Positions 3,164-55,620 of a stretch of DNA of 64,000 bases are shown piece after piece. The stretch is from assembly GCA_964596525.1 (NCBI GenBank), contig CAZQUL010000001.1, positions 76,830 to 140,829 on the forward strand, read 5' to 3'. The position numbers and the translations under genes were made by a program. The stretch's first letter is position 1, and each line of letters starts with the position of its first letter. Origin of the DNA: an uncultured Gammaproteobacteria bacterium. Lineage in GTDB: Bacteria > Patescibacteriota > Patescibacteriia > Magasanikbacterales > GWA2-37-8. The notes beneath the pieces are model-generated. The model was not told the DNA's origin. It ran no database searches and saw only the letters and a program-made list of their open reading frames with translations.

Positions 3164-3946
3164 CTAGAAGAGATCGGCGGCCGCGCGCTCTTCCCACGTG
3201 GCAGCTATGACTTTCTGTCCGTCCCACGCGTAATAGTGAGATTTGGGCTCTCCGTAGAGCCGACCCGTGTACGCGGTGCGGAAGACGGTGTTACGCGGAA
3301 TGAGCGCGATAAACTGTTCTCCACTCCCCATACGGCCCGCATCTCCTTGGGCGATGATGCCGCGCGCGAGCACCTCTGCTGGAAACGGTGCAAAGACGGT
3401 CTCGAAGGTGGACTCGCCACATTTCGGACATGTAGCGGGCGCATACATCCCAGCGCCTTCGGTACTGCAGGCCCTGCATTTCCAACCGACCCGGTCGCCG
3501 GTATGGGCATTACTGCCCCGGAAGCCGATCTTGGTAACCATGACCGCGATAATGAAGTCGGGACTGGAGGCTTCGCGCGCGCTAATAAGCTTATTCTTGC
3601 CTGCTCGGGTCTTGCCAATCTGAGCGAACATAAGCCGATCACACACCTTTCCATCGTCAGGATGATTGGAGGCATGACCGACTTCTTTCGCCGCGACAAG
3701 CTGGCATCCACACGTGTCGCACGCACTACCACTCGACGACCAGACCGCTCGCCCCCGATCGGGGCACGCCACGAGCGGCGGATTATCGACCGGCAGCACA
3801 CCACGCTCACGTCCCCGGCCTTCTTCACCGATGATTATGGCGGGGATATCAACGGCGGCACCCTTGAGATGCAGTGTCTTGACGGCCGCACCCGGCGTAA
3901 CCGAACCGTTTGAAATGGTAACAACACTCAACGACTGCTGATTCAT
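3164..3946 (-). CDS. hypothetical protein with CxxC...CxxC zinc-ribbon motifs
   Basis: Start MNQQ at 3946 after a GGAGGA RBS. CDTCGC and CRAC...CPKCG cysteine clusters. The longer 479-aa ORF call upstream of this start is read-through. Confidence 0.55.
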   Translation of the reverse strand: MNQQSLSVVTISNGSVTPGAAVKTLHLKGAAVDIPAIIIGEEGRGRERGVLPVDNPPLVACPDRGRAVWSSSGSACDTCGCQLVAAKEVGHASNHPDDGKVCDRLMFAQIGKTRAGKNKLISAREASSPDFIIAVMVTKIGFRGSNAHTGDRVGWKCRACSTEGAGMYAPATCPKCGESTFETVFAPFPAEVLARGIIAQGDAGRMGSGEQFIALIPRNTVFRTAYTGRLYGEPKSHYYAWDGQKVIAATWEERAAADLF

Positions 3947-4194
3947 GGCGTTCCTCCGTTTCGGGCCCGGTGGGCAGCTGCCCGTGGGCGTGAAAGTCGC
4001 TGGAGCGACACAGTGCTCTTGTACGAAGAGCGGGAAATTACCTCGCGAGATAACTTCCTTACTCTGCGCAACAGTAGAACAGACAATAGTATCGTTCTTT
4101 TCAGGCAATGTCAATGAAAACAAACTCGTTCTTAGCACTTTAAAACAGAAAGGCGGAGCGCGCGAGGCGTCCGCCATGAAGGCTAGAAGGGTCA

Positions 4195-11714: not shown

Positions 11715-11743
11715 TTGACAGGGAGTCGGGAAACGGTTATCAT
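11715..11743 (+). promoter_or_regulatory. sigma70-like promoter TTGACA-N17-TATCAT driving the tRNA locus
   Basis: TTGACAGGGAGTCGGGAAACGGTTATCAT, about 20 nt upstream of the first tRNA-like sequence. Confidence 0.45.
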
Positions 11744-11764: not shown

Positions 11765-11846
11765 GGCAGGGTGGCGATGGTGGTAAGAGCACGGGATTCA
11801 TAACCCGCACCCACAGGACGAGAAGTTCGATTCTCTCCCGAGAGGA
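11765..11846 (+). pseudogene. degenerate tRNA-Met(CAT)-like copy, probable tRNA pseudogene
   Basis: Shares GGCAGGGT..GGTAAGAGCACGGGATTCATAACCC and GTTCGATTCTCTCCC with the downstream tRNA-Met. Acceptor, D and anticodon stems do not pair, and there is an 8-nt insertion in the variable region. Confidence 0.4.
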
Positions 11847-11862
11847 ATTTCATACAATACTA

Positions 11863-11936
11863 GGCAGGGTAGCTCAGTTGGTAAGAGCACGGGATTCATA
11901 ACCCCGAGGTCGAGAGTTCGATTCTCTCCCCTGTCA
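11863..11936 (+). tRNA. tRNA-Met (anticodon CAT; could also be tRNA-Ile2/lysidine type)
   Basis: GGCAGGGTAGCTCAGTTGGTAAGAGCACGGGATTCATAACCCCGAGGTCGAGAGTTCGATTCTCTCCCCTGTCA. Cloverleaf folds cleanly with a TTCGATT T-loop. 74 nt. Confidence 0.85.
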
Positions 11937-17705: not shown

Positions 17706-18003
17706 AATTGTTTGTTCAGATATCAGTGCTGTTTATATCAAAAATTCGATTTTCGCTCTTCGATCACGGCGGTTGAAATACCCAACCGTCGAAACCGGAA
17801 AGCGAGCCTGACGCAGATTCGAATCCTGCATGGTAAACGGCCCGTGCGTTTGCCGTTCGTCTAAATGGTTAAGATGCGCTATCCACGCTAGTACGACACA
17901 GCCACTCTCCTTCTCTACTGAGAAGGGAGTAGCGTTGAACTCTCCGCGAGCCTGGCTCGCGTATCGATACTAACAACCGTAACGGAAGAAGGAGGTGCAA
18001 GCC

Positions 18004-18450
18004 ATGCTAAGAACTCCGACCTTGTACGACATCACCGGCCTCACCACCGAGAGCGTGCTCGCCGCGCTCTACAACGCCGCGGTACAGATCTGCAATGATC
18101 CGAACGCGCCGAGCGTCATGACGGCCGAGCAGGCCTTCCAGGTACTCGGCGAGTGGCCGATCACCGCCAACTGGTCATTCGACTACCTGTACGGGAGGGC
18201 ACTCAAGGTCGGGCTGGGCCTCGAACCGCGTCAGAAGCTCGACCTGAGCGCCTACGACTCGCGCAACGGCACCGGCACCGGAGCCACCGCCCTCGCCATC
18301 CTGCGCGAGACCAAGAATCCGCAGCACCCGCACATCATCAACCTGCACCAGTACCACACGGATATGTTCAGGATGAAGTCCGCCGCCGTGCAGCTCCTCT
18401 ACGCAATGACCGACGATGAGCTCGCCGCCTCCCTGCGCATCAGGCCCTAG
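18004..18450 (+). CDS. hypothetical protein
   Basis: AAGGAGG RBS. ATG at 18004 preferred over GTG at 17995. Terminator hairpin follows at about 18455-18495. Confidence 0.5.
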   Translation: MLRTPTLYDITGLTTESVLAALYNAAVQICNDPNAPSVMTAEQAFQVLGEWPITANWSFDYLYGRALKVGLGLEPRQKLDLSAYDSRNGTGTGATALAILRETKNPQHPHIINLHQYHTDMFRMKSAAVQLLYAMTDDELAASLRIRP

Positions 18451-18722
18451 TTCATTCCCCAACCCCTCCCCGATTCGCTCGGCGAGGGGTTTATGTTTTA
18501 CCAGGCGCAATAAAGTACTATCACCTTACCATATACAATAACCGCGTCCATACGTTTGTTCGCGAATTTGACCGACCATTATTGAACGGACACATTTTCC
18601 TCACATCCACGCTCGCTGCGATTTTCGCGCTACAAAAATACGGGTAACCATGTTTTAACAGAACGCATTGACAAAGGACGAAAAAGGCTCTTCACTATGC
18701 TGGCCATTCAAGGAGGCTCTAC

Positions 18723-19307
18723 ATGGACATGCGAACAGCGGGCGCTCTCATGCTTTTCGGACTCATGGGCTGCGGCGGAGTTGAAGTTTTCTCTCTCACG
18801 GATACTCCGGTCCCTAACCGGATGTTCGTTACTGCCCGGACTTTTGCACCGTACGAGCTCGACTATACCGGCGAAAAACCTTGCCAGGCAGCGGCCGATG
18901 AAGCTAAGCTCGGTGGTCATTGGCAGGCCTGGCTTTCAAGTCACGAAATTTTCCCGATTCACGCCAAGGATACCATTGTCCGCCACGGACCGTGGTACGA
19001 CCTCGCGGGAGCACAGATCTTTTCTTCGCGGGCTGCACTCATAAGCGGACGGCCCGAAACCGGCATTGCGGTAAACGAGAGGGGCGAAAGGCTGCCAGAC
19101 GGGGAACCGATCTGGACCGGTACAAAGAGCGACGGAACCGCCAGCGTCGACCGCTGCTTCTCACAGCTGCCGTACCGAATTTGGTATGCAGATACGGGTG
19201 CCGTACAGGGCCTCGTGGGTGAAACCGGTGCGCTAGATGCGCGCTGGACCGAAGCCTACCCACTCCTGTGCAACCAGCGGGCGCACCTCATCTGCTTCGA
19301 GCGCTAA
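18723..19307 (+). CDS. secreted lipoprotein, unknown function
   Basis: AAGGAGG RBS. Signal peptide with lipobox LMGCGG. Trp-rich mature domain ending CNQRAHLICFER. Confidence 0.65.
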   Translation: MDMRTAGALMLFGLMGCGGVEVFSLTDTPVPNRMFVTARTFAPYELDYTGEKPCQAAADEAKLGGHWQAWLSSHEIFPIHAKDTIVRHGPWYDLAGAQIFSSRAALISGRPETGIAVNERGERLPDGEPIWTGTKSDGTASVDRCFSQLPYRIWYADTGAVQGLVGETGALDARWTEAYPLLCNQRAHLICFER

Positions 19308-19981
19308 ATCAAACCAAGCCAGTCTTGCAAGCGCTCGTCCGTAAGCGATTCGACCACGAGGTCAGCATAGGAAAAGTTTCCTATGCTTTTTTTATACGGC
19401 ACTGCTATGCAGCGCATGCCCGCTGCCTTGGCTGCTCTTACTCCGTTTTCGGAATCTTCAATCACCACGCACTGTGATGGATGCACGTCGATTTTTTGTG
19501 CGGCATAGAGAAAAACCGCTGGATCAGGTTTTCCTTTGTTGCCCACCTCTTCACACGAAGCCAGATAGTCAAAGTGCGGTTGCCACCGTAATCGGTCGAC
19601 AACGGTAGTAACACGCCTCGCGCTCGAACCAGAAGCGATAGCCTGGGAACCGATTTGCTGCCTTGTGGCGCGGATGAGCTCTTCTGCTCCAGCAATGGGT
19701 TGTGCTAAAGCTCGATAGATTTCTTCGGTCATAGACAAAAGCTCGGCACGGAGATCTTCAGGCGTTTCGCTCCACCCAAACGTAACCTTAAAACGCTGCA
19801 TCGTTTCGAGAATACTCCCGCCAGCGACCTGGCGATGCAGCTCGGGAGTGAATTCCATGCCGCGTTTTGCAAAAAAATGTTGATTGACCGGCTGCCAATG
19901 ATCTTCGCTGTCGATGAGTGTCCCGTCGAGATCGTAGATGATGGCTTCGATTTTTAATGTAGGCATAACAGCTATTGACAA
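19304..19981 (-). CDS. HAD-IA hydrolase (beta-phosphoglucomutase-like)
   Basis: IYDLDGTLIDS motif I and conserved C-terminal motifs. Confidence 0.8.
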   Translation of the reverse strand: MSIAVMPTLKIEAIIYDLDGTLIDSEDHWQPVNQHFFAKRGMEFTPELHRQVAGGSILETMQRFKVTFGWSETPEDLRAELLSMTEEIYRALAQPIAGAEELIRATRQQIGSQAIASGSSARRVTTVVDRLRWQPHFDYLASCEEVGNKGKPDPAVFLYAAQKIDVHPSQCVVIEDSENGVRAAKAAGMRCIAVPYKKSIGNFSYADLVVESLTDERLQDWLGLI

Positions 19982-20003
19982 AAAATAATTACTCCGATAT
20001 AAT
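19975..20003 (+). promoter_or_regulatory. consensus sigma70-like promoter TTGACA-N17-TATAAT
   Basis: TTGACAAAAAATAATTACTCCGATATAAT, a perfect match to consensus. Drives the structured RNA or leader to the right. Confidence 0.55.
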
Positions 20004-20009
20004 CTAATG

Positions 20010-20420
20010 TCATCGATAGATACTTGCTTGGCACGCGGTGATTAGCAAGGACCTGTTCGAGGACGTGGCACCGTAAGTAGCTGCCTGAGGTGGGGTTGGA
20101 AAGGATTCGTTGTAAGCTACTTATACAACGAAGTAACGGGCAGTGGGCATGACGCAGAGATGTTTTTTTTGGAGGCTTAGCTTAAGTAAAGCGACTTGAC
20201 GGAGCTCACGGTCAAGGAGATGCGGGTGCAAATCCCGCGGCCCCGACAGTGGCGACAACCAGCCACTTACTACAACATCTCATACGTCACTGGAAAACTG
20301 ACTGAACGGGCACTAGCCGCAGCTTATTCCTTTTTAGGAAAGGCAGCGGCAGCTGAAAATTCACCGTCACACGACGGTTCCCATAACCCCTGGTTCGCCA
20401 GGGGTCGCTTTTTTAAAGAG
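20010..20420 (+). ncRNA. candidate structured RNA or long structured 5' leader (unclassified)
   Basis: About 410 nt between a consensus promoter and a CCCCTGG-TTCG-CCAGGGG-U-run terminator. Contains at least four strong hairpins and a possible closing helix AAAGCGAC/GTCGCTTT. No credible ORF with an RBS. Confidence 0.3.
20393..20420 (+). terminator. intrinsic terminator
   Basis: CCCCTGG-TTCG-CCAGGGG followed by TCGCTTTTTT. Confidence 0.65.
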
Positions 20421-20474
20421 CAGTTGACAGGAAACGCGGAGAGTTCTAGTCTACCCACAAGAAAGGAGTCATTC

Positions 20475-20702
20475 ATGCTTCGCCTCCTCGGTTATATTAT
20501 GGTCCTGTACGCCATTTCGGTCGTGGTGCGGGCCTGCGAGGATGTGGAGAAATGGCTCCGCCCCCCGCCGCCGCACATCATGGTCTGCAACCCGCCTCCG
20601 GCAGATCCGAACATTCGACTGCCGATCCCCGGATTCCCCTCGTTCTACCCGCTTCAAGCCAAGGTTGCGTCCGCGTCTCACGCAATCGGGCAGTGCCCTT
20701 AA
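20475..20702 (+). CDS. small secreted/membrane protein, 75 aa
   Basis: AAAGGAG RBS. Hydrophobic N-terminus MLRLLGYIMVLYAISVVVRA, Pro-rich tail. Lies 55 nt after the terminator. Confidence 0.45.
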   Translation: MLRLLGYIMVLYAISVVVRACEDVEKWLRPPPPHIMVCNPPPADPNIRLPIPGFPSFYPLQAKVASASHAIGQCP

Positions 20703-20777
20703 ACCTCCGCGTCATTATCCGACGCGGTTTTGTTTCTTCAACGCCAATAGAATGCATCCAAACCATGGGTGCATTTT

Positions 20778-22601
20778 TTATTCAACCGTCACGCTCTTGG
20801 CCAGATTGCGCGGCCGGTCGACATCACGCCCCAAGATAACTGCCGTGTGATATGCAAAGAGTTGGCAAACGATATTCGTGACGAGCGGTTCGAGGAGTTC
20901 CATCGTAGGAGGAACGTAGATGATATCATCAGCTAACTGCGCGGCTTCGGTATCACCCTCGGTGGCAATAAGAAGAACTGGTGCTTTGCGTGCACGCACT
21001 TCTTCAATGTTGCTCCGCATTTTTTCGTAGAGTTGATTCTTGGGCATAAGGGCGATGACCGGAAAATCCTTGGAGAGGAGTGCGACGGGGCCGTGCTTCA
21101 TTTCGCCGGCCGCGAATGCTTCGGCGTGGACATACGAAATTTCCTTGAGTTTGAGCGCGCCTTCGAGCGCGATGGGGAATTGGACACCACGACCCAGATA
21201 CAAACAATTTTTGTACACCGAATATTTCTCCGCGAGTACACGGATAGCGTCGTTCTGCGCGAGCACCTGCTTCATTTTTTCTGGCAGCTCAACGAGTGCC
21301 TGAATGAGTCGTTGACCGGTTGCAAGGCTCGTGCGGCGCTGGCGGCCGAACTGGAGGGCGTACAGTAGTAAAATCGTTGCGGTATTGGTGAACGCTTTGG
21401 TAGATGCCACCGCGAGTTCGGGGCCGGCGTGCATGTAGGTACCACCGTCGGTTTCGCGCGCGATGGTGGAACCGACCACGTTGACAATACCGCGCACAAA
21501 CGCACCTTTACGTTTCGCCTCGCGCAATGCTGCGAGCGTATCGGCCGTTTCGCCCGATTGCGAGAGCGCAAAGACGAGGGTGTTCTCGTCGAGGATCGTA
21601 TCACGGTAACGGAACTCGCTCGCGATTTCTACATCTGTTGGAAGGCCGGCAAGACGCTCAAAGGCATATTTACCGATGAGTCCTGCATACGACGACGTGC
21701 CGCAGGCGATGAGCACCACACGGTTCACGCGACGCATTTCTTCAACCGTCATGTTGAGTCCGCCGAGTTTGGCCGCACCGAACTCAGGATCAATGCGACC
21801 GCGAAATGCATCTTGAATAACGGAGGGTTGGTCAAAAATTTCCTTGAGCATGAAGTGGGGAAAACCGTTCTTCTGCGCTACGGCCTCATCCCAATGGATT
21901 TCTTCGGTAGTTTTATCGACAGCCTTGTTGTCGATCGTAAAAATATCCATGCCGCTGCGGTTGATTTCTGCCACCTCACCATCGTCAAGAAAGACAACCT
22001 GTTTGGTGTACGGAAGAAGCGGTGATGTATCTGAAGCGATGAAATATTCACCCTCCCCCACCCCAATTGCGAGCGGACTCCCGAGCCGTGCAGCAACGAA
22101 CGTGCCTGGATGATTCTTGTGCATTACGACGAGCCCGTAGGTGCCGCGCACATGCTTGAGAGCTTCGAGGACTGCTGTGCGCAGATTACCTTTAAAAAAA
22201 TGCCCAATGAGATGCGCCAACACTTCGGTGTCGGTTTCGGATTTAAACTCGTGGTCAGATAAAAATTCGTTTTTAAGCTCGCGATAGTTTTCGATGATGC
22301 CATTATGCACGATGACGATGTTGCCAGAAGCGTCGGTGTGCGGATGCGCGTTCGGTTCTGTTACGCCGCCATGTGTAGCCCAGCGCGTATGCGCAAGACC
22401 AAACGTTCCATCGATTGTTTCCGCGCCCGTTCGTTCGGCCAGATTGTCGATTTTACCCACGGCTTTGATGATCTTGAACGCATCTTTGTCGAAAATCGCC
22501 ACCCCAGCGCTGTCGTAACCGCGATATTCGAGACGACGTAGACCCTTAACGAGAATGGGTAATGCCGGCTTGGCACCTACGTACGCAATAATGCCGCACA
22601 T
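20778..22601 (-). CDS. glmS: glutamine--fructose-6-phosphate aminotransferase
   Basis: MCGIIAY N-terminal nucleophile, two SIS domains. 607 aa. Confidence 0.92.
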   Translation of the reverse strand: MCGIIAYVGAKPALPILVKGLRRLEYRGYDSAGVAIFDKDAFKIIKAVGKIDNLAERTGAETIDGTFGLAHTRWATHGGVTEPNAHPHTDASGNIVIVHNGIIENYRELKNEFLSDHEFKSETDTEVLAHLIGHFFKGNLRTAVLEALKHVRGTYGLVVMHKNHPGTFVAARLGSPLAIGVGEGEYFIASDTSPLLPYTKQVVFLDDGEVAEINRSGMDIFTIDNKAVDKTTEEIHWDEAVAQKNGFPHFMLKEIFDQPSVIQDAFRGRIDPEFGAAKLGGLNMTVEEMRRVNRVVLIACGTSSYAGLIGKYAFERLAGLPTDVEIASEFRYRDTILDENTLVFALSQSGETADTLAALREAKRKGAFVRGIVNVVGSTIARETDGGTYMHAGPELAVASTKAFTNTATILLLYALQFGRQRRTSLATGQRLIQALVELPEKMKQVLAQNDAIRVLAEKYSVYKNCLYLGRGVQFPIALEGALKLKEISYVHAEAFAAGEMKHGPVALLSKDFPVIALMPKNQLYEKMRSNIEEVRARKAPVLLIATEGDTEAAQLADDIIYVPPTMELLEPLVTNIVCQLFAYHTAVILGRDVDRPRNLAKSVTVE

Positions 22602-26258: not shown

Positions 26259-26508
26259 AACCGCGTAAAAAAGCACAAAATCGCCCGGCATGCGCTATGC
26301 CCGGCGATTTTTAAATACGTATTATACTCACTTGACATTTTACCTAAAATAGGATACAGTTATTCGTTACGTGCTGCACAAGCCGTACCTTTCGCACCTT
26401 TCATGTTCTAGGGGCATTTAGGGCCACAGTCTGGCTCTAAACGCCCCCAGAACACCCAGACACCGGATGGGCTACAACCCGTCCATCACCAGAGAAAGAG
26501 GACGCCAG

Positions 26509-27465
26509 ATGTCGAACAAGACGAACTCCGCCGAGACCAAGACCCCTTCGACCGGCACTTCGGCCATCGCCGCTGCGATCTCACAGCTCCACCCGACGAA
26601 GCGCCCCACCGCCAGGATCGAAGATCCAAACGAGATGCTCCGCCTGGAAGCTCTGCGCGAGGCGAGCCGCGATGATGCGGAGCGAACCGACACCACAGGC
26701 ACGCCCGAGAGCGGACAGACGCTGCGCGACCAGCCGTCGGCCCCGACGCAGTACGTGACCGACGACGAGCACGAGCAGCGCATCGGTGAGTACATCGCGG
26801 CCCACAAAGAGGAGGCGCAGCAGGCTGTGACCAAGCAGAACGAGGCACGCCGGGCCACGATCCGCAAGGCTACCGTGTGGATGGGCATCATCGCCTTCGC
26901 GGCGATCGCCATCTACATGACCCGCTCCTTCCTGCACCTGCAGGAGGAGAACGCCATGCTCCACGCCAAACTCGACGCGGGCACCAAGAAGGAGATCGAG
27001 AACCAGGCCGCGCCGGTCGACATGGGGACCCACCACATCCCGTCGAGCGACGACGATGACTGGGACCAGCGGAAGGCCGCAACCCAGAAGTCGGACACTG
27101 CCTCCGCGGTCACCACTCCGGCGCCGACCAAGCTCCCGACCACCCCGGTCGTGGACAAGGCGGCAGAGGAGAAGGCTGGCGACGATCTTGTCATGGTGGG
27201 TGATGGCACGGGGAAAGACGGGATCAAGTACAAGAAGTACACGATCACGGCCGAGGACATCGAGCTCGGGACGACGCTCCTCGGGATCACCAAGCGGCAC
27301 CGCTTCGGCAAGAGTGAAGGCAAGCGCCTCACCGCGCTGCACAAGCTCAACGACGGCCGTACGGTGACCGCCGCCAACGGCAAGAGCCGCACGATCAGCG
27401 CCGAGGACCCCAAGGGCCTCGATCTGATCCGCGTCGGGGAGACCTGGTTCATCCCGGTCCCCTAG
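26509..27465 (+). CDS. single-pass membrane protein with disordered N-terminus and LysM-like C-terminal domain
   Basis: AAGAGGA RBS. TM helix VWMGIIAFAAIAIYMT. C-terminal YTITAEDIELGTTLLGITKRH...IRVGETWFIPVP resembles LysM. Confidence 0.5.
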   Translation: MSNKTNSAETKTPSTGTSAIAAAISQLHPTKRPTARIEDPNEMLRLEALREASRDDAERTDTTGTPESGQTLRDQPSAPTQYVTDDEHEQRIGEYIAAHKEEAQQAVTKQNEARRATIRKATVWMGIIAFAAIAIYMTRSFLHLQEENAMLHAKLDAGTKKEIENQAAPVDMGTHHIPSSDDDDWDQRKAATQKSDTASAVTTPAPTKLPTTPVVDKAAEEKAGDDLVMVGDGTGKDGIKYKKYTITAEDIELGTTLLGITKRHRFGKSEGKRLTALHKLNDGRTVTAANGKSRTISAEDPKGLDLIRVGETWFIPVP

Positions 27466-27669
27466 GGAAGGCTCGCGACGGCGCGCGAGTAGCCCCACAA
27501 CCCCTGTACCAAGCGCACAGAGTGCGTACGGTACAGGGGTTTTTGATATAGTAAAAAACTTTTTTGATGAATACTTCTTGTAGCATTCCATTATACACTT
27601 GACAGCAGTTAAGAAGATTAGTATTATTACTAGTCGTCGTCATACCCCGCTAGGGGTGAGGAGGAGCAC

Positions 27670-27771
27670 ATGCGCGCAGGACCGATCCGTAATATGGCTT
27701 TCTTCTACGTCTTCTCCAAGCCGATCGCAGCCGCCGTGGCCGCGATCAGCTGGATCATCAGACACACCTAG
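27670..27771 (+). CDS. possible small hydrophobic peptide (33 aa)
   Basis: Strong GAGGAGGA RBS and upstream TTGACA...TATTAT. Peptide MRAGPIRNMAFFYVFSKPIAAAVAAISWIIRHT. Confidence 0.3.
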   Translation: MRAGPIRNMAFFYVFSKPIAAAVAAISWIIRHT

Positions 27772-27878
27772 CCAAGGGAGACCGACACAGGAGGATCCGC
27801 CGAGCGTCTCGACGCTCGGCCCCATCAAAAAAACGACCTTCAGAGAAGATCGCTTTTTTGTTTTTAGACGATTAGTTC

Positions 27879-29156
27879 TTATACCGCATCGTATTCGTGC
27901 ATCGTAATCTGCGCATCGATCTGCTTGGCAGTTTCGATAGCTACCGCGACCGCGATAAGCATGCTCGTACCACCGATGCTCAAGCTCTGCGTTCCGGTAA
28001 CGATCTGGAGGATAAGCGGGAGGATAGCGATAACGCCAAGGAACAGCGCACCGCCCAAGTTCAATCGGTTCATGGTAGAGCTCAGGTATTCTTCGGTTTC
28101 CTTACCCGGACGAATCCCCGGGATAAAACCACCTTGCTTCTGGAGATTTTCGGCGATTTTCTGTGGATGGAAAATAACGCTCGTATAGAAGAATGTGAAG
28201 CCAAAGACCAGGATGAAGTACGCGATGGTGTATACGACACCCGTGTTCTGGAAGGCCTGCGTCACGCGGAATGCAAGTTCGGCAAGCCACGGCGTTGAAG
28301 AGTTGACGAGAAACTGCGCGATGAGCGCGGGCAAAGTAAGAAGCGACAAAGCGAAGATGATCGGCACGACGCCGGCCATGTTGACCCGGAAAGGAAGATG
28401 GGTGGACGAACCGCCCATCATGCGCATACCGCGCACCTGCTTGGCATAGGTTACCGGAATATTGCGCTGCGCTTCGTTGACGAATACTACGGCAATGATC
28501 GTACCCACAGCCATCGCCGCATAGAGGATGAAGGTGGTTGTATCATTCGAGGTATAGTTGAGGAACGCGTTACGCACTACCTGCGGGAGAGAGGCAACGA
28601 TACCCGCGAAGATAAGAAGCGACGTGCCATTGCCCACTTTCTGTTCGGTAATGAGTTCACCGAGCCAGACCAAGAACATGGTGCCGGCGGTGACGGTAAG
28701 GATGATGGAAATAACACCAAGCGGCGCAACATCCCCCAAAATACCCTGGCCCGACGTGCGCAGATACTGAAGCGTGGCATAACCCTGCATAAGGGCGAAT
28801 GGCACGGTGAGGTACCGCGTATAACGGTTGAGTGTATTCTGACCCTGCTCCCCTTCTTTGGATAATTCTTCAAACTTGGGCAGGATAATCGTGAGGAGCT
28901 GAATGATGATGGACGCAGTAATGTAGGGACCCACACCAAGCATGATCACCGAGAAATTTTGGATACTACCACCCGAGAACAAGTTAAGAAGGCCGAGGAT
29001 CTGGTTGCCTTCAAGCACTTGGCGGACGCTATTAACATCCACACCCGGAATCGGTACGTGCGCCGTAAGGCGAAACACCACCAAAAGACCGAGCACGAAC
29101 AAAATCTTGTTGCGCACTTCTTTCAGCGTCCAGAGGGAAGAAAGTTTTTCCCACAT
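27879..29156 (-). CDS. secY: preprotein translocase subunit SecY
   Basis: 10-TM SecY signature. 425 aa. Last gene of the ribosomal cluster. Confidence 0.93.
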   Translation of the reverse strand: MWEKLSSLWTLKEVRNKILFVLGLLVVFRLTAHVPIPGVDVNSVRQVLEGNQILGLLNLFSGGSIQNFSVIMLGVGPYITASIIIQLLTIILPKFEELSKEGEQGQNTLNRYTRYLTVPFALMQGYATLQYLRTSGQGILGDVAPLGVISIILTVTAGTMFLVWLGELITEQKVGNGTSLLIFAGIVASLPQVVRNAFLNYTSNDTTTFILYAAMAVGTIIAVVFVNEAQRNIPVTYAKQVRGMRMMGGSSTHLPFRVNMAGVVPIIFALSLLTLPALIAQFLVNSSTPWLAELAFRVTQAFQNTGVVYTIAYFILVFGFTFFYTSVIFHPQKIAENLQKQGGFIPGIRPGKETEEYLSSTMNRLNLGGALFLGVIAILPLILQIVTGTQSLSIGGTSMLIAVAVAIETAKQIDAQITMHEYDAV

Positions 29157-38328: not shown

Positions 38329-38376
38329 ACCTTTGGTATGCTTACCAGTGCTTGCCGTGGGGCAAGATGGTGTTTG

Positions 38377-38429
38377 TATAAAAAAACTAGAAGCGTCAAC
38401 GGTGGAGTTTCACCAGCTCGCGCTTCTAG
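38377..38429 (-). terminator. intrinsic terminator/attenuator hairpin in the rplC leader
   Basis: Minus-strand CTAGAAGCG-[25-nt structured loop]-CGCTTCTAG followed by TTTTTTT, about 50 nt upstream of the rplC ATG. Confidence 0.55.
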
Positions 38430-38602
38430 CCTTTCTAACAACTACCCTAAAAACCCTTCTGTTACCGTTAGAATGGCAGTCAAAATTCTCAAAATAACTC
38501 CTTTTTCCGCTCTTTAGATATCTCCTCATGTTTTCTGAGCACACAGATCTTATGAGTCTCTACGTAAAAAGCGTCATGTATTAATTAACCTAACTCCGCG
38601 TG

Positions 38603-38631
38603 ATTATAACAGGCAAAGACGGCTTTGTCAA
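38603..38631 (-). promoter_or_regulatory. consensus sigma70-like promoter TTGACA-N17-TATAAT (minus strand) between rpsJ and rplC
   Basis: Minus-strand TTGACAAAGCCGTCTTTGCCTGTTATAAT, perfect -35 and -10 with 17-nt spacing. Confidence 0.6.
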
Positions 38632-54675: not shown

Positions 54676-55155
54676 CTATGTATTGTTTTTAATATTCTTA
54701 AGGACCGCTACCATTTCAACCGCGCTCAAACCCGCCTCCCAACCTTTTTTCTTGCCGCCGAGCGCACGGGCTTCGGCCTGCGCTTTGTCTTCGGTGGTTA
54801 AAACGCCAAAAATGACCGGCAAACGATGGTCAATCGCGATACGCGTAAGACCGTTCGCCACGGCATCGGCGATGTAGTGATCATGGCGCGTTTCGCCTTT
54901 GATGATGACACCCAAGCAGATGATGGCGTCGTAGTTTTTCTCGGCTGCGAGCGCGGCGGCAAGAACCGGCAACTCGAACGAACCTGGTACGCGCAGACTA
55001 GTGATGTCGCCAGCTGCGACACCGACGGAACGGAGCGCCTCAATGCAATCGTCGAGAAGTGCGTCGGTAAGCTCGGCGTTGAAGCGGGCCGCGACCACGG
55101 CGCAACGCACGCCGATACCGGCGTTGGCAGGCAAGATGAATGAATTGGATTTCAT
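54676..55155 (-). CDS. ribH: 6,7-dimethyl-8-ribityllumazine synthase
   Basis: RFNAELTDALLDDC...GSFELP...ICLGVIIKGETRHDHYIA signature. Confidence 0.92.
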   Translation of the reverse strand: MKSNSFILPANAGIGVRCAVVAARFNAELTDALLDDCIEALRSVGVAAGDITSLRVPGSFELPVLAAALAAEKNYDAIICLGVIIKGETRHDHYIADAVANGLTRIAIDHRLPVIFGVLTTEDKAQAEARALGGKKKGWEAGLSAVEMVAVLKNIKNNT

Positions 55156-55295: not shown

Positions 55296-55324
55296 TTGAC
55301 AAAAGCGCTAAAATATGCTATAAT
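55296..55324 (+). promoter_or_regulatory. consensus sigma70-like promoter TTGACA-N17-TATAAT
   Basis: TTGACAAAAGCGCTAAAATATGCTATAAT, a perfect match. Confidence 0.55.
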
Positions 55325-55379
55325 ATATCCGAGTCGCTAAACAGAATCCATCAGTTTTATAGCCAAAAAGGAGCCCTTC

Positions 55380-55556
55380 ATGAGGATCTTGCGCACCATC
55401 TTCGTTCTCACCTGCATACTCGCCGCGATCGGTTGCCGCACCCAGCCTAAGCGCGGCCCTACGGGCGGTGCAGAACTCATCGATGCAGCTAAGGGTCCTC
55501 CGCCCGCCAGACCGCCCGCCTACGTTGAGACGTTCAAGGTGGAAGAGCTCGACTAA
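55380..55556 (+). CDS. small lipoprotein-like peptide (58 aa)
   Basis: AAAGGAG RBS. Signal peptide with lipobox LAAIGC. Pro-rich tail. Confidence 0.5.
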   Translation: MRILRTIFVLTCILAAIGCRTQPKRGPTGGAELIDAAKGPPPARPPAYVETFKVEELD

Positions 55557-55620
55557 GCTCCTGGACCGCCTAATACCCCGAACCATCGGGGGTTGTTTTT
55601 TATTAAAAGGATGCGAGGGC

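Follow-up and report, generated by a model that had tools for sequence, protein, structure and literature searches.

The window analysed here, a stretch of 64,000 nt from a 1.34-Mb bacterial genome, carries on its plus strand, between the genes glmS and HAD, a promoter, a structured stretch of about 400 nt, an intrinsic terminator, and a small open reading frame (ORF). The subject of this analysis is the RNA that the structured stretch would encode, at the centre of which lies a tRNA-like cloverleaf. The neighbouring genes code for HAD, GlmS, CofD, and an NTP-transferase. GlmS (20778–22601, minus strand) has its best match, at 79% identity, in Candidatus Magasanikbacteria of the Candidate Phyla Radiation (CPR)/Patescibacteria, the group to which it assigns the window, and among 5.8 billion proteins the nearest homologues of the HAD protein are only 57–59% identical, which indicates a lineage without a close sequenced relative. 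In the relatives recovered, the next gene after glmS, in the same orientation and tens of bases to about 200 nt away, is a HAD phosphatase gene or directly cofD, whereas the window holds about 800 bp on the opposite strand, comprising the RNA and the small ORF, between glmS and HAD. Because relatives carry neither at this position, RNA and small ORF together read as a lineage-specific insertion of about 800 bp. The features of the locus are listed in Table 1.

Table 1. Features of the RNA locus (positions in the 64,000-nt window, except in the last three rows, which refer to loci of metagenomic relatives; P, pair probability; MFE, minimum free energy; RBS, ribosome-binding site)
Feature	Position	Strand	Details
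Sigma-70-type promoter	19975–20003	+	TTGACA-17 nt-TATAAT, 12/12 match; predicted start ~20009–20012
5′ domain, extended interrupted hairpin	20009–20064	+	in MFE structure; P 0.85–0.99; helices 20009–11/62–64, 20013–16/57–60, 20017–19/53–55, 20023–28/44–49, 20032–34/38–40
Hairpin A	20067–20085	+	loop UAAGUAGC(U), 20074–82, complementary to loop of hairpin P; weak stem, P ~0.4
Word resembling a tmRNA 5′ end	20092–20109	+	GGGGUUGGAAAGGAUUCG; read from sequence
Hairpin P	20106–20132	+	perfect 9-bp stem UUCGUUGUA/UACAACGAA (20106–14/20124–32), in MFE structure; 9-nt loop AGCUACUUA (20115–23)
Leader-trailer helix, 5′ strand	20137–20164	+	pairs with 20274–20308
Acceptor strands	20169–77/20239–46	+	
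tRNA-like cloverleaf	20171–20246	+	Rfam tRNA RF00005, 26.5 bits, E 0.0043; same cloverleaf in MFE structure
D-arm	20180–83/20189–92	+	GCUU/AAGC; D-loop AAGUA, 5 nt, single G
Anticodon-like arm	20195–200/20211–16	+	CUUGAC/GUCAAG, 6-bp stem; 10-nt loop GGAGCUCACG; in MFE structure, high P
Variable region	between anticodon-like arm and T-arm	+	GAGAU, 5 nt
T-arm	20222–26/20234–38	+	hairpin GCGGG-UGCAAAU-CCCGC (20222–38), loop UGCAAAU; in MFE structure, high P
Extra hairpin AGUGGC/GCCACU	20248–53/20262–67 (20248–20267)	+	P 0.98; inside junction closed by long helix
Leader-trailer helix, 3′ strand	20274–20308	+	in MFE structure, with pair probabilities
Two 3′ hairpins	20311–20378	+	20316–50 (GCCGC/GCGGC, GCUU/AGGC, UUCCU/AGGAA) and 20363–78 (ACCGUC/GACGGU); P 0.8–0.96
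Intrinsic terminator	20386–20414	+	8-bp stem ACCCCUGG-UUCG-CCAGGGGU (20386–20405), spacer CGC, U6 (20409–14)
Second promoter-like site	20424–20452	+	TTGACA-17 nt-TAGTCT; positioned for a start just 5′ of the small-ORF RBS
RBS and small ORF	20462–20702	+	AAAGGAG (20462–68); ORF of 75 amino acids (20475–20702), codon score 0.23
Two terminator-like hairpins 3′ of small ORF	20707–20780	+	20707–27, then U-run; ~20748–75, then U6
Small Cys-rich ORF, glmS/HAD junction, L085	~3800–4000		
Small Cys-rich ORF, glmS/HAD junction, L086	1–279	−	
Small Cys-rich ORF, glmS/HAD junction, L089	1–153	−	

The promoter had been called a perfect consensus by an earlier sequence-only reading of this DNA, and it is one of three perfect sigma-70 matches found in the window, where 0.03 would be expected. 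One of the others drives the rplC-rplD-rplW-rplB operon and the second a gene for a small lipoprotein, so perfect promoters appear to mark genuinely expressed units in this genome. The E. coli-type sigma-70 consensus is over-represented across the window, the relaxed pattern TTGACN-N16–18-TANNNT occurring 22 times against 3.6 expected (a six-fold excess), with several of these matches at intergenic positions that were checked. Given this strong over-representation, it seems that the promoters of this CPR genome can be read directly from its sequence. The promoter-like site between the terminator and the RBS belongs to the same enriched pattern, and the small ORF therefore probably has a promoter of its own. 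The terminator lies on the same strand as the promoter, about 60 nt 5′ of the ATG at 20475; the earlier assignment of a canonical terminator to 20393–20420 holds for its presence, whereas the true start lies about 6 nt before the one given there, and the spacer of 3 nt ahead of the U-tract is slightly non-canonical. To judge by such signals in the DNA, the unit has what a free-standing small RNA (sRNA) gene would have, namely a promoter and terminator of its own, no ORF, and signals distinct from those of the gene that follows.

The fold predicted for the RNA region is more stable than expected (z −4.4; 0/100 dinucleotide shuffles as stable), and the folding window at 20001 ranks third in stability among 234 equal-sized windows of the same genome. 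The strand of the RNA is assigned from the promoter and the U-tract. All four hairpins pointed out in the earlier reading recur in the MFE structure, with pair probabilities of 0.9–1.0. Transcription would begin at the promoter at 19975–20003 and stop at the intrinsic terminator, and the transcript is predicted to fold in three parts. The first would be a 5′ domain with two hairpins, A and P, whose loops might kiss: the loop of hairpin P, AGCUACUUA, is complementary at 9/9 positions to 20074–82 in the loop of hairpin A, and, in a test devised post hoc, 1 of 2000 shuffles produced a similarly perfect hairpin whose loop had a complement of at least 8 nt. The two loops are thus a candidate kissing-loop pair with 8–9 nt of complementarity in the model; since all nine pairs at once are sterically impossible, the interaction would comprise 6–8 bp. 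The second part would be a leader-trailer helix of about 23 bp, capped by the cloverleaf and one extra hairpin, both of which it encloses in the MFE structure and in the ensemble. This helix consists of six segments (P 0.88–0.99) and recurs unchanged in a fold of the core by itself. The third part would comprise the two 3′ hairpins and, after them, the terminator.

The cloverleaf includes three of the hairpins named in the earlier reading, with CUUGAC as the "anticodon" arm and GCGGG as the T-arm. In a 951-nt search in E≤10 mode, the Rfam tRNA model is covered in full (positions 1–71), and the tRNA core positions U8, A14, the A15–U48 pair, G53–C61, U54–A58, and C56 are kept. Features foreign to tRNAs are the 10-nt anticodon loop, which sits on a 6-bp stem rather than being a 7-nt loop on a 5-bp stem, the lack of GG18/19 in the D-loop, a G at position 55, and a mismatched acceptor stem. 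Of the acceptor strands GGAGGCU/GGCCCCG, 5/7 positions pair, while the MFE structure has instead 8 bp with a bulged A. The cloverleaf cannot decode because of its 10-nt "anticodon" loop and because no 3′ CCA is encoded. It would appear to be tRNA-derived, with much of the tRNA core kept. The best identity to a possible parent tRNA is 68%, to tRNA-Lys(CUU) of relatives, a level that is uninformative. When ARAGORN was relaxed to an 85% threshold it reported a "tRNA-Val with a 77-nt intron", for which it took the tmRNA-like word at 20092–20109 as an acceptor strand; this call was rejected because a tRNA that is plainly false scored equally on the opposite strand.

Another tRNA-related sequence of the window is a decayed partial duplicate of tRNA-Met(CAU) at 11766–11845 (+), located directly 5′ of the intact tRNA-Met (11863–11936) and behind the same promoter-like site (11715–11743). 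Of the tRNA, the copy retains the anticodon arm, the T-arm, and the acceptor strand on the 5′ side but not on the 3′ side; it carries an insertion of about 8 nt and gives no match to the tRNA model at E≤10 in a search of equal size. Judged from the two sequences, the cloverleaf at 20171–20246 is far better preserved.

To relate the RNA to known families, Rfam 15 was searched in gathering mode over the whole window and in E≤10 mode over 19850–20800. The former returned two tRNAs only and nothing in the RNA region; the latter returned the sub-threshold tRNA match plus noise, with no tmRNA, RNase P, Y RNA, T-box, riboswitch, or leader, and an E-value search of the whole window yielded nothing further. 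The description of the region as a non-coding structured unit of no known class, extending from promoter to terminator, is borne out by the absence of any Rfam family at the gathering threshold. Readings as RNase P RNA, T-box, retron, or diversity-generating retroelement were dropped, as there was no covariance-model match and no reverse transcriptase among the ORFs scanned. YrlA-type Y RNAs are encoded next to rsr, which codes for the Ro60 orthologue (PMC4201824); a YrlA or other Y RNA was rejected here on the grounds that no Rfam Y-RNA model matches, that the termini exit through the acceptor stem, and that no TROVE-domain (Ro60/Rsr) protein is found among the 40 window ORFs scanned.

Homologues of the RNA were sought in several collections. 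Scans of GTDB genomes, JGI metagenomes, and IMG/VR required exact motif matches, and the source genome is not part of the GTDB and JGI sets. No homologue was found in GTDB genomes or JGI metagenomes, and the 6 matches among IMG/VR viral contigs were all due to chance or to unrelated tRNAs. The RNA was likewise not found by nhmmer in 77 Magasanikbacteria glmS loci and the closest metagenomic contigs, by a covariance model built on the core and run on about 1 Mb of sequence, by blastn against phages and plasmids, or by a six-frame translation used as protein query to pick up spurious ORF calls over homologous RNAs. The only other copy of the region resides on a Logan contig from SRR11567520 and is 100% identical. 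The earlier reading had named a lack of conservation in relatives as grounds for refuting it, and such a lack is indeed observed: RNA and small ORF are absent from all relatives examined.

We tentatively read the locus, with somewhat less than even confidence, as encoding a lineage-specific, independently transcribed, free-standing, and probably processed structured RNA of about 400 nt with a tRNA-mimic domain. This reading is suggested by the perfect promoter, the same-strand terminator, the absence of a coding signal, and a fold z of −4.4; by the tRNA model scoring 26.5 bits over all 71 positions, the leader-trailer clamp (P 0.9–0.99), and the 9/9 complementarity of the loops; and by the separate promoter-like site of the small ORF together with the precedent of YrlA from M. 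smegmatis (PMC4201824). From the signals observed in the sequence, we infer that the RNA is transcribed, folded, and processed. The tRNA-like domain would most likely offer tRNA-recognising proteins a handle on the RNA. By analogy, its likeliest role would be in processing, with RNase P or a 3′ tRNA-processing nuclease splitting the primary transcript so that a tRNA-like piece is released from between a 5′ RNA of about 160 nt and a 3′ RNA of about 165 nt; the cloverleaf may instead recruit or titrate a tRNA-binding factor. One analogue on which the proposed processing role draws is the group of sRNAs that derive from bacterial tRNA spacers. The other is M. smegmatis YrlA, a non-coding RNA with a tRNA-like module that is cleaved by RNase P and to which CCA is added (PMC4201824). 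In a bolder and rather doubtful version, the RNA would represent an undescribed class of CPR "ornate" RNAs of about 400 nt, in which a long helix presents a genuine tRNA mimic alongside a kissing-loop 5′ domain. It is no less doubtful that, in a minimal-genome symbiont, this mimic would hijack tRNA-processing enzymes to release two small RNAs, or would bind and titrate a tRNA-recognising protein, candidates for which include a synthetase, a cell-wall aminoacyl-transferase, and a toxin.

Several observations weigh against a processed, free-standing RNA. Cleavage by RNase P would be disfavoured both by the imperfect acceptor stem, in which there are two mismatches or a single bulged A, and by the pairing of the would-be discriminator, A20246, with U20169 in the MFE structure. 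The cloverleaf scores below the curated Rfam cut-off (26.5 versus 29 bits), is not listed in the whole-window Rfam searches in either gathering or E-value mode, and is not called as a tRNA by ARAGORN at default settings, appearing only at noise-level settings. As no search returned a homologue, neither covariation nor conservation lends support. Furthermore, the fold of the minus strand is of similar stability (z −5.7), and the helices, being almost purely Watson–Crick, could be DNA-level inverted repeats; stability alone is therefore no proof of selection at the RNA level.

The small ORF downstream would be a separate gene under its own promoter, to whose expression read-through of the slightly imperfect terminator may add. 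Its start codon at 20475, noted earlier as having a good RBS, is an ATG with AAAGGAG 6 nt upstream. The product of 75 amino acids combines a hydrophobic segment at its N-terminus with a Pro-rich tail, belongs to no Pfam family, and matches only itself among 5.8 billion proteins, which makes it an orphan. The second of the hairpins that follow it (~20748–75) abuts the stop codon of the convergent glmS.

Further units behind promoters or promoter-like sites occur elsewhere in the window. At 55296–55600 (+), inserted antisense between ribE (55621–) and ribH (54676–55155), a perfect promoter (55296–55324) is followed by an RBS, an ORF for a Pro-rich, lipoprotein-like product of 58 amino acids (55380–55556; LAAIGC lipobox) without a Pfam or PHROG family, and a terminator. 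The RBS context of this ORF is almost identical to that of the ORF at 20475, and no paralogy between the cassette and the RNA locus was found beyond it. Judged also from the small ORFs at the glmS/HAD junction of relatives (Table 1), antisense cassettes for small secreted proteins read as recurrent insertions, and the unusual element at the locus described here is the 400-nt RNA between promoter and ORF. Between the convergent ORF 26467–27465 and secY (27879–29156) lies a further unit (27599–27860, +; fold z −8.5) with a promoter-like site (27599–27627), the RBS GAGGAGGAG, an ORF for a hydrophobic peptide of 33 amino acids (27670–27771), and a terminator; this ORF may be a small membrane peptide or toxin-like gene. 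On the minus strand, at 38329–38631, a perfect promoter (38603–38631) precedes a structured RNA of about 190 nt and a clean terminator (stem plus U7), just 5′ of rplC-rplD-rplW-rplB (fold z −6.7). This RNA has no Rfam match and is a candidate ribosomal-protein leader or attenuator, so the architecture of promoter, structured leader, terminator, and gene does seem to occur in this genome.

The neighbourhood of the locus shows further lineage-specific change. A second insertion of 1.6 kb (17706–19303, +) separates HAD from cofD, which are adjacent in relatives; it holds two orphan plus-strand ORFs, 17995–18450 (local GC up to 0.64) and 18723–19307 (lipoprotein-like N-terminus, LMGCGG), neither of which belongs to a Pfam or PHROG family. 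At the glmS/HAD junction of the closest metagenomic relatives there are differing small ORFs with signal peptides and many Cys residues, divergent from HAD (Table 1). These show no homology to the small ORF of the window, and it looks as if genes for small secreted proteins have repeatedly been inserted at this junction. In two relatives, a PF05635 (23S-rRNA-intervening-sequence-protein) gene lies between the NTP-transferase gene and glmS (L085 1252–1635; L087 1235–1618), whereas in the window these two genes are separated by a gap of only about 50 nt. Signs of a mobile element at the RNA locus were not detected: flanking direct repeats or terminal inverted repeats do not exceed chance, and there is no second copy in the 64-kb window.

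Among the alternatives, the one that survives best is that the locus is evolutionary debris, i.e., a functionless tRNA-derived fragment—a decayed duplicate tRNA or the remnant of an element—that came to lie behind a promoter in the insertion. This is possible, albeit on balance unlikely. It would be in keeping with the absence of the region from all 77 Magasanikbacteria glmS loci and the closest metagenomic relatives, with the orphan status of both RNA and ORF, with the presence of another partly duplicated, decayed tRNA in the genome (tRNA-Met-like, 11766–11845), with the aberrant 10-nt anticodon loop, mismatched acceptor stem, missing GG18/19, and G at 55, and with the equal folding of both strands. 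On the other hand, a perfect-consensus promoter and an intact terminator persist in a streamlined genome of 1.34 Mb, the cloverleaf has kept its form far better than the decayed tRNA copy known from the window, and structure extends well beyond the tRNA-like part, including the 23-bp clamp, the loop–loop complementarity, and a z of −4.4.

A cis-acting leader or attenuator, the option preferred by the sequence-only reading, fares less well and is in our estimate improbable. The promoter at 19975 would then be the main promoter of the small secreted-protein gene, and the leader would set the balance between termination and read-through. The switch proposed for this purpose would oppose a pairing of AAAGCGAC with GUCGCUUU or of GGGGUUG (20092–98) with UAACCCC (20384–90) to the tRNA-like fold and the terminator. 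The terminator does lie 60 nt 5′ of a start codon with a good RBS, it may be leaky on account of its 3-nt spacer before the U-tract, and the frame is open from 20196 into the small ORF. The same genome also has a perfect promoter, structured leader, terminator, and gene upstream of rplC, and a perfect promoter that directly drives the small Pro-rich secreted ORF 55380–55556 with a very similar RBS context. Segments that could form the switch exist: AAAGCGAC (20188–95) and GUCGCUUU (20404–11), for which long-range pairing had been suggested earlier, are indeed complementary, and GGGGUUG could pair with UAACCCC. However, an 8-nt match is by our estimate expected about once by chance within about 400 nt, and these antiterminator candidates of 7–8 nt are at chance level, are separated from the terminator by 200–290 nt, and appear in neither the MFE nor the centroid fold. 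No riboswitch, T-box, or leader of Rfam matches even at E≤10, a promoter-like site intervenes between terminator and RBS, and neither RNA nor ORF is conserved. To our knowledge, an ornate leader of 400 nt has no precedent for an orphan protein of 75 amino acids. The earlier preference is therefore not upheld, given the lack of an aptamer class, the chance-level antiterminators, the promoter-like site at 20424–20452, and the absence from relatives.

It is highly improbable that the true gene is an ORF for a protein of 160–168 amino acids (20196/20220–20702) that runs through the structured stretch. The only long ORF in the ~400 nt, 20196–20702 with a TTG start, is an in-frame upstream extension of the small gene. 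Ninety-three codons are open 5′ of the ATG at 20475, for which the chance is an estimated 2–3%, and one automatic gene caller reports the version of 160 amino acids (P0002) on the Logan contig. Against this, neither start has a usable RBS—AAGGAG abuts the ATG at 20220 without a spacer, and nothing precedes the TTG at 20196—and the intrinsic terminator lies inside the ORF. The codon-usage score of the extension is −0.07, compared with 0.46 ± 0.20 for in-frame coding chunks of genes and −0.63 ± 0.27 out of frame. Moreover, the version of 75 amino acids, present in both NCBI and Logan, has a strong RBS, and searches with the longer one turned up neither homologues nor a Pfam or PHROG family. The stretch is accordingly read as non-coding, in agreement with the earlier statement that it holds no credible ORF.

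Least probable of all is a divergent or miniature tmRNA with an acceptor GGGGUUG/CGGCCCC, a D-loop analogue GGAUUCG, and the T-arm GCGGG-UGCAAAU-CCCGC. The word GGGGUUGGAAAGGAUUCG, which the earlier reading had described as tmRNA-like, is present in the 5′ part and resembles the 5′ ends of the tmRNAs encoded by ssrA in E. coli and B. subtilis; an acceptor stem of 7 bp could form, UGGGGUU (20091–97) being able to pair at 7/7 positions with GGCCCCG (20239–45); and RNAs of the CPR are often aberrant. Nevertheless, a tmRNA identity was rejected, since ARAGORN reports none at default or lowered thresholds and no standard or permuted tmRNA family of Rfam matches at E≤10, the two tRNA-like halves are only about 115 nt apart, position 3–70 would be G–C rather than G3–U70 in either acceptor register using 20091–98, the 3′ side reads GACA without an encoded CCA, the three frames show no tag-like ORF (as the earlier reading had found) and no convincing resume codon or tag ending, and the intervening sequence folds into hairpin P and D- and anticodon-like arms, arms that are absent from tmRNA. 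No SmpB was found among the ORFs scanned in the window, which represents 64 kb of the 1.34-Mb genome. To judge by its sequence, the 5′ word resembles tmRNA by chance, or at most provides an alternative strand for the acceptor stem.

If the free-standing RNA with its tRNA mimic is real and functional, it would be among very few candidate regulatory RNAs of the CPR/Patescibacteria, the RNA biology of which is almost unknown. Its importance stays local unless homologues appear, because it is confined to a single genome and absent from all relatives. Equally, the locus may exemplify how tRNA-derived fragments and small secreted-protein cassettes insert into the operons of streamlined genomes.

Compared with known systems, the locus shares with attenuation leaders and riboswitches the order of promoter, structured RNA, intrinsic terminator, and RBS with gene, and differs from them in having no match to a known family, no significant antiterminator, a promoter-like site after the terminator, an orphan gene, and no conservation. 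As in tRNAs of RF00005, D-, anticodon-, and T-arms, a 5-nt variable region, and core nucleotides are present; unlike in tRNAs, the acceptor ends continue into the 23-bp leader-trailer helix, no CCA is encoded, and a leader of about 160 nt and a trailer of about 165 nt flank the element. With tmRNA, the RNA has in common the GGGG...GGAUUCG word at its 5′ side, a T-arm followed by a pairable C-rich strand, and a transcript of about 400 nt, whereas its tRNA-like part is located in mid-transcript and not formed by the two ends. In eukaryotes, MALAT1 contains a tRNA-like processing module that gives rise to mascRNA, and bacterial tRNA-spacer sRNAs such as 3′ETS-leuZ flank genuine tRNAs. The RNA described here resembles both in carrying a tRNA-like element inside a longer transcript with a flanking leader-trailer interaction, an arrangement by which enzymes of tRNA processing would be able to set the ends of the RNAs on either side. 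It differs from them in that MALAT1 is eukaryotic, the spacer sRNAs adjoin genuine tRNAs, and processing is here only inferred. Like YrlA, finally, it would be a bacterial non-coding RNA in which a long helix is joined to a tRNA-like module (PMC4201824). While the acceptor-stem analogue of YrlA is a closed stem-loop and its termini leave on the other side as the Ro-binding helix (PMC4201824), the termini of the RNA described here exit through the acceptor stem, and its length of about 400 nt compares with about 100–150 nt for YrlA. RNAs that mimic tRNAs are thus already represented by tmRNA, YrlA, and mascRNA; the present one, if functional, has a different topology and no family match, and would constitute a second topology of tRNA mimicry in bacterial non-coding RNAs, after tmRNA and YrlA.

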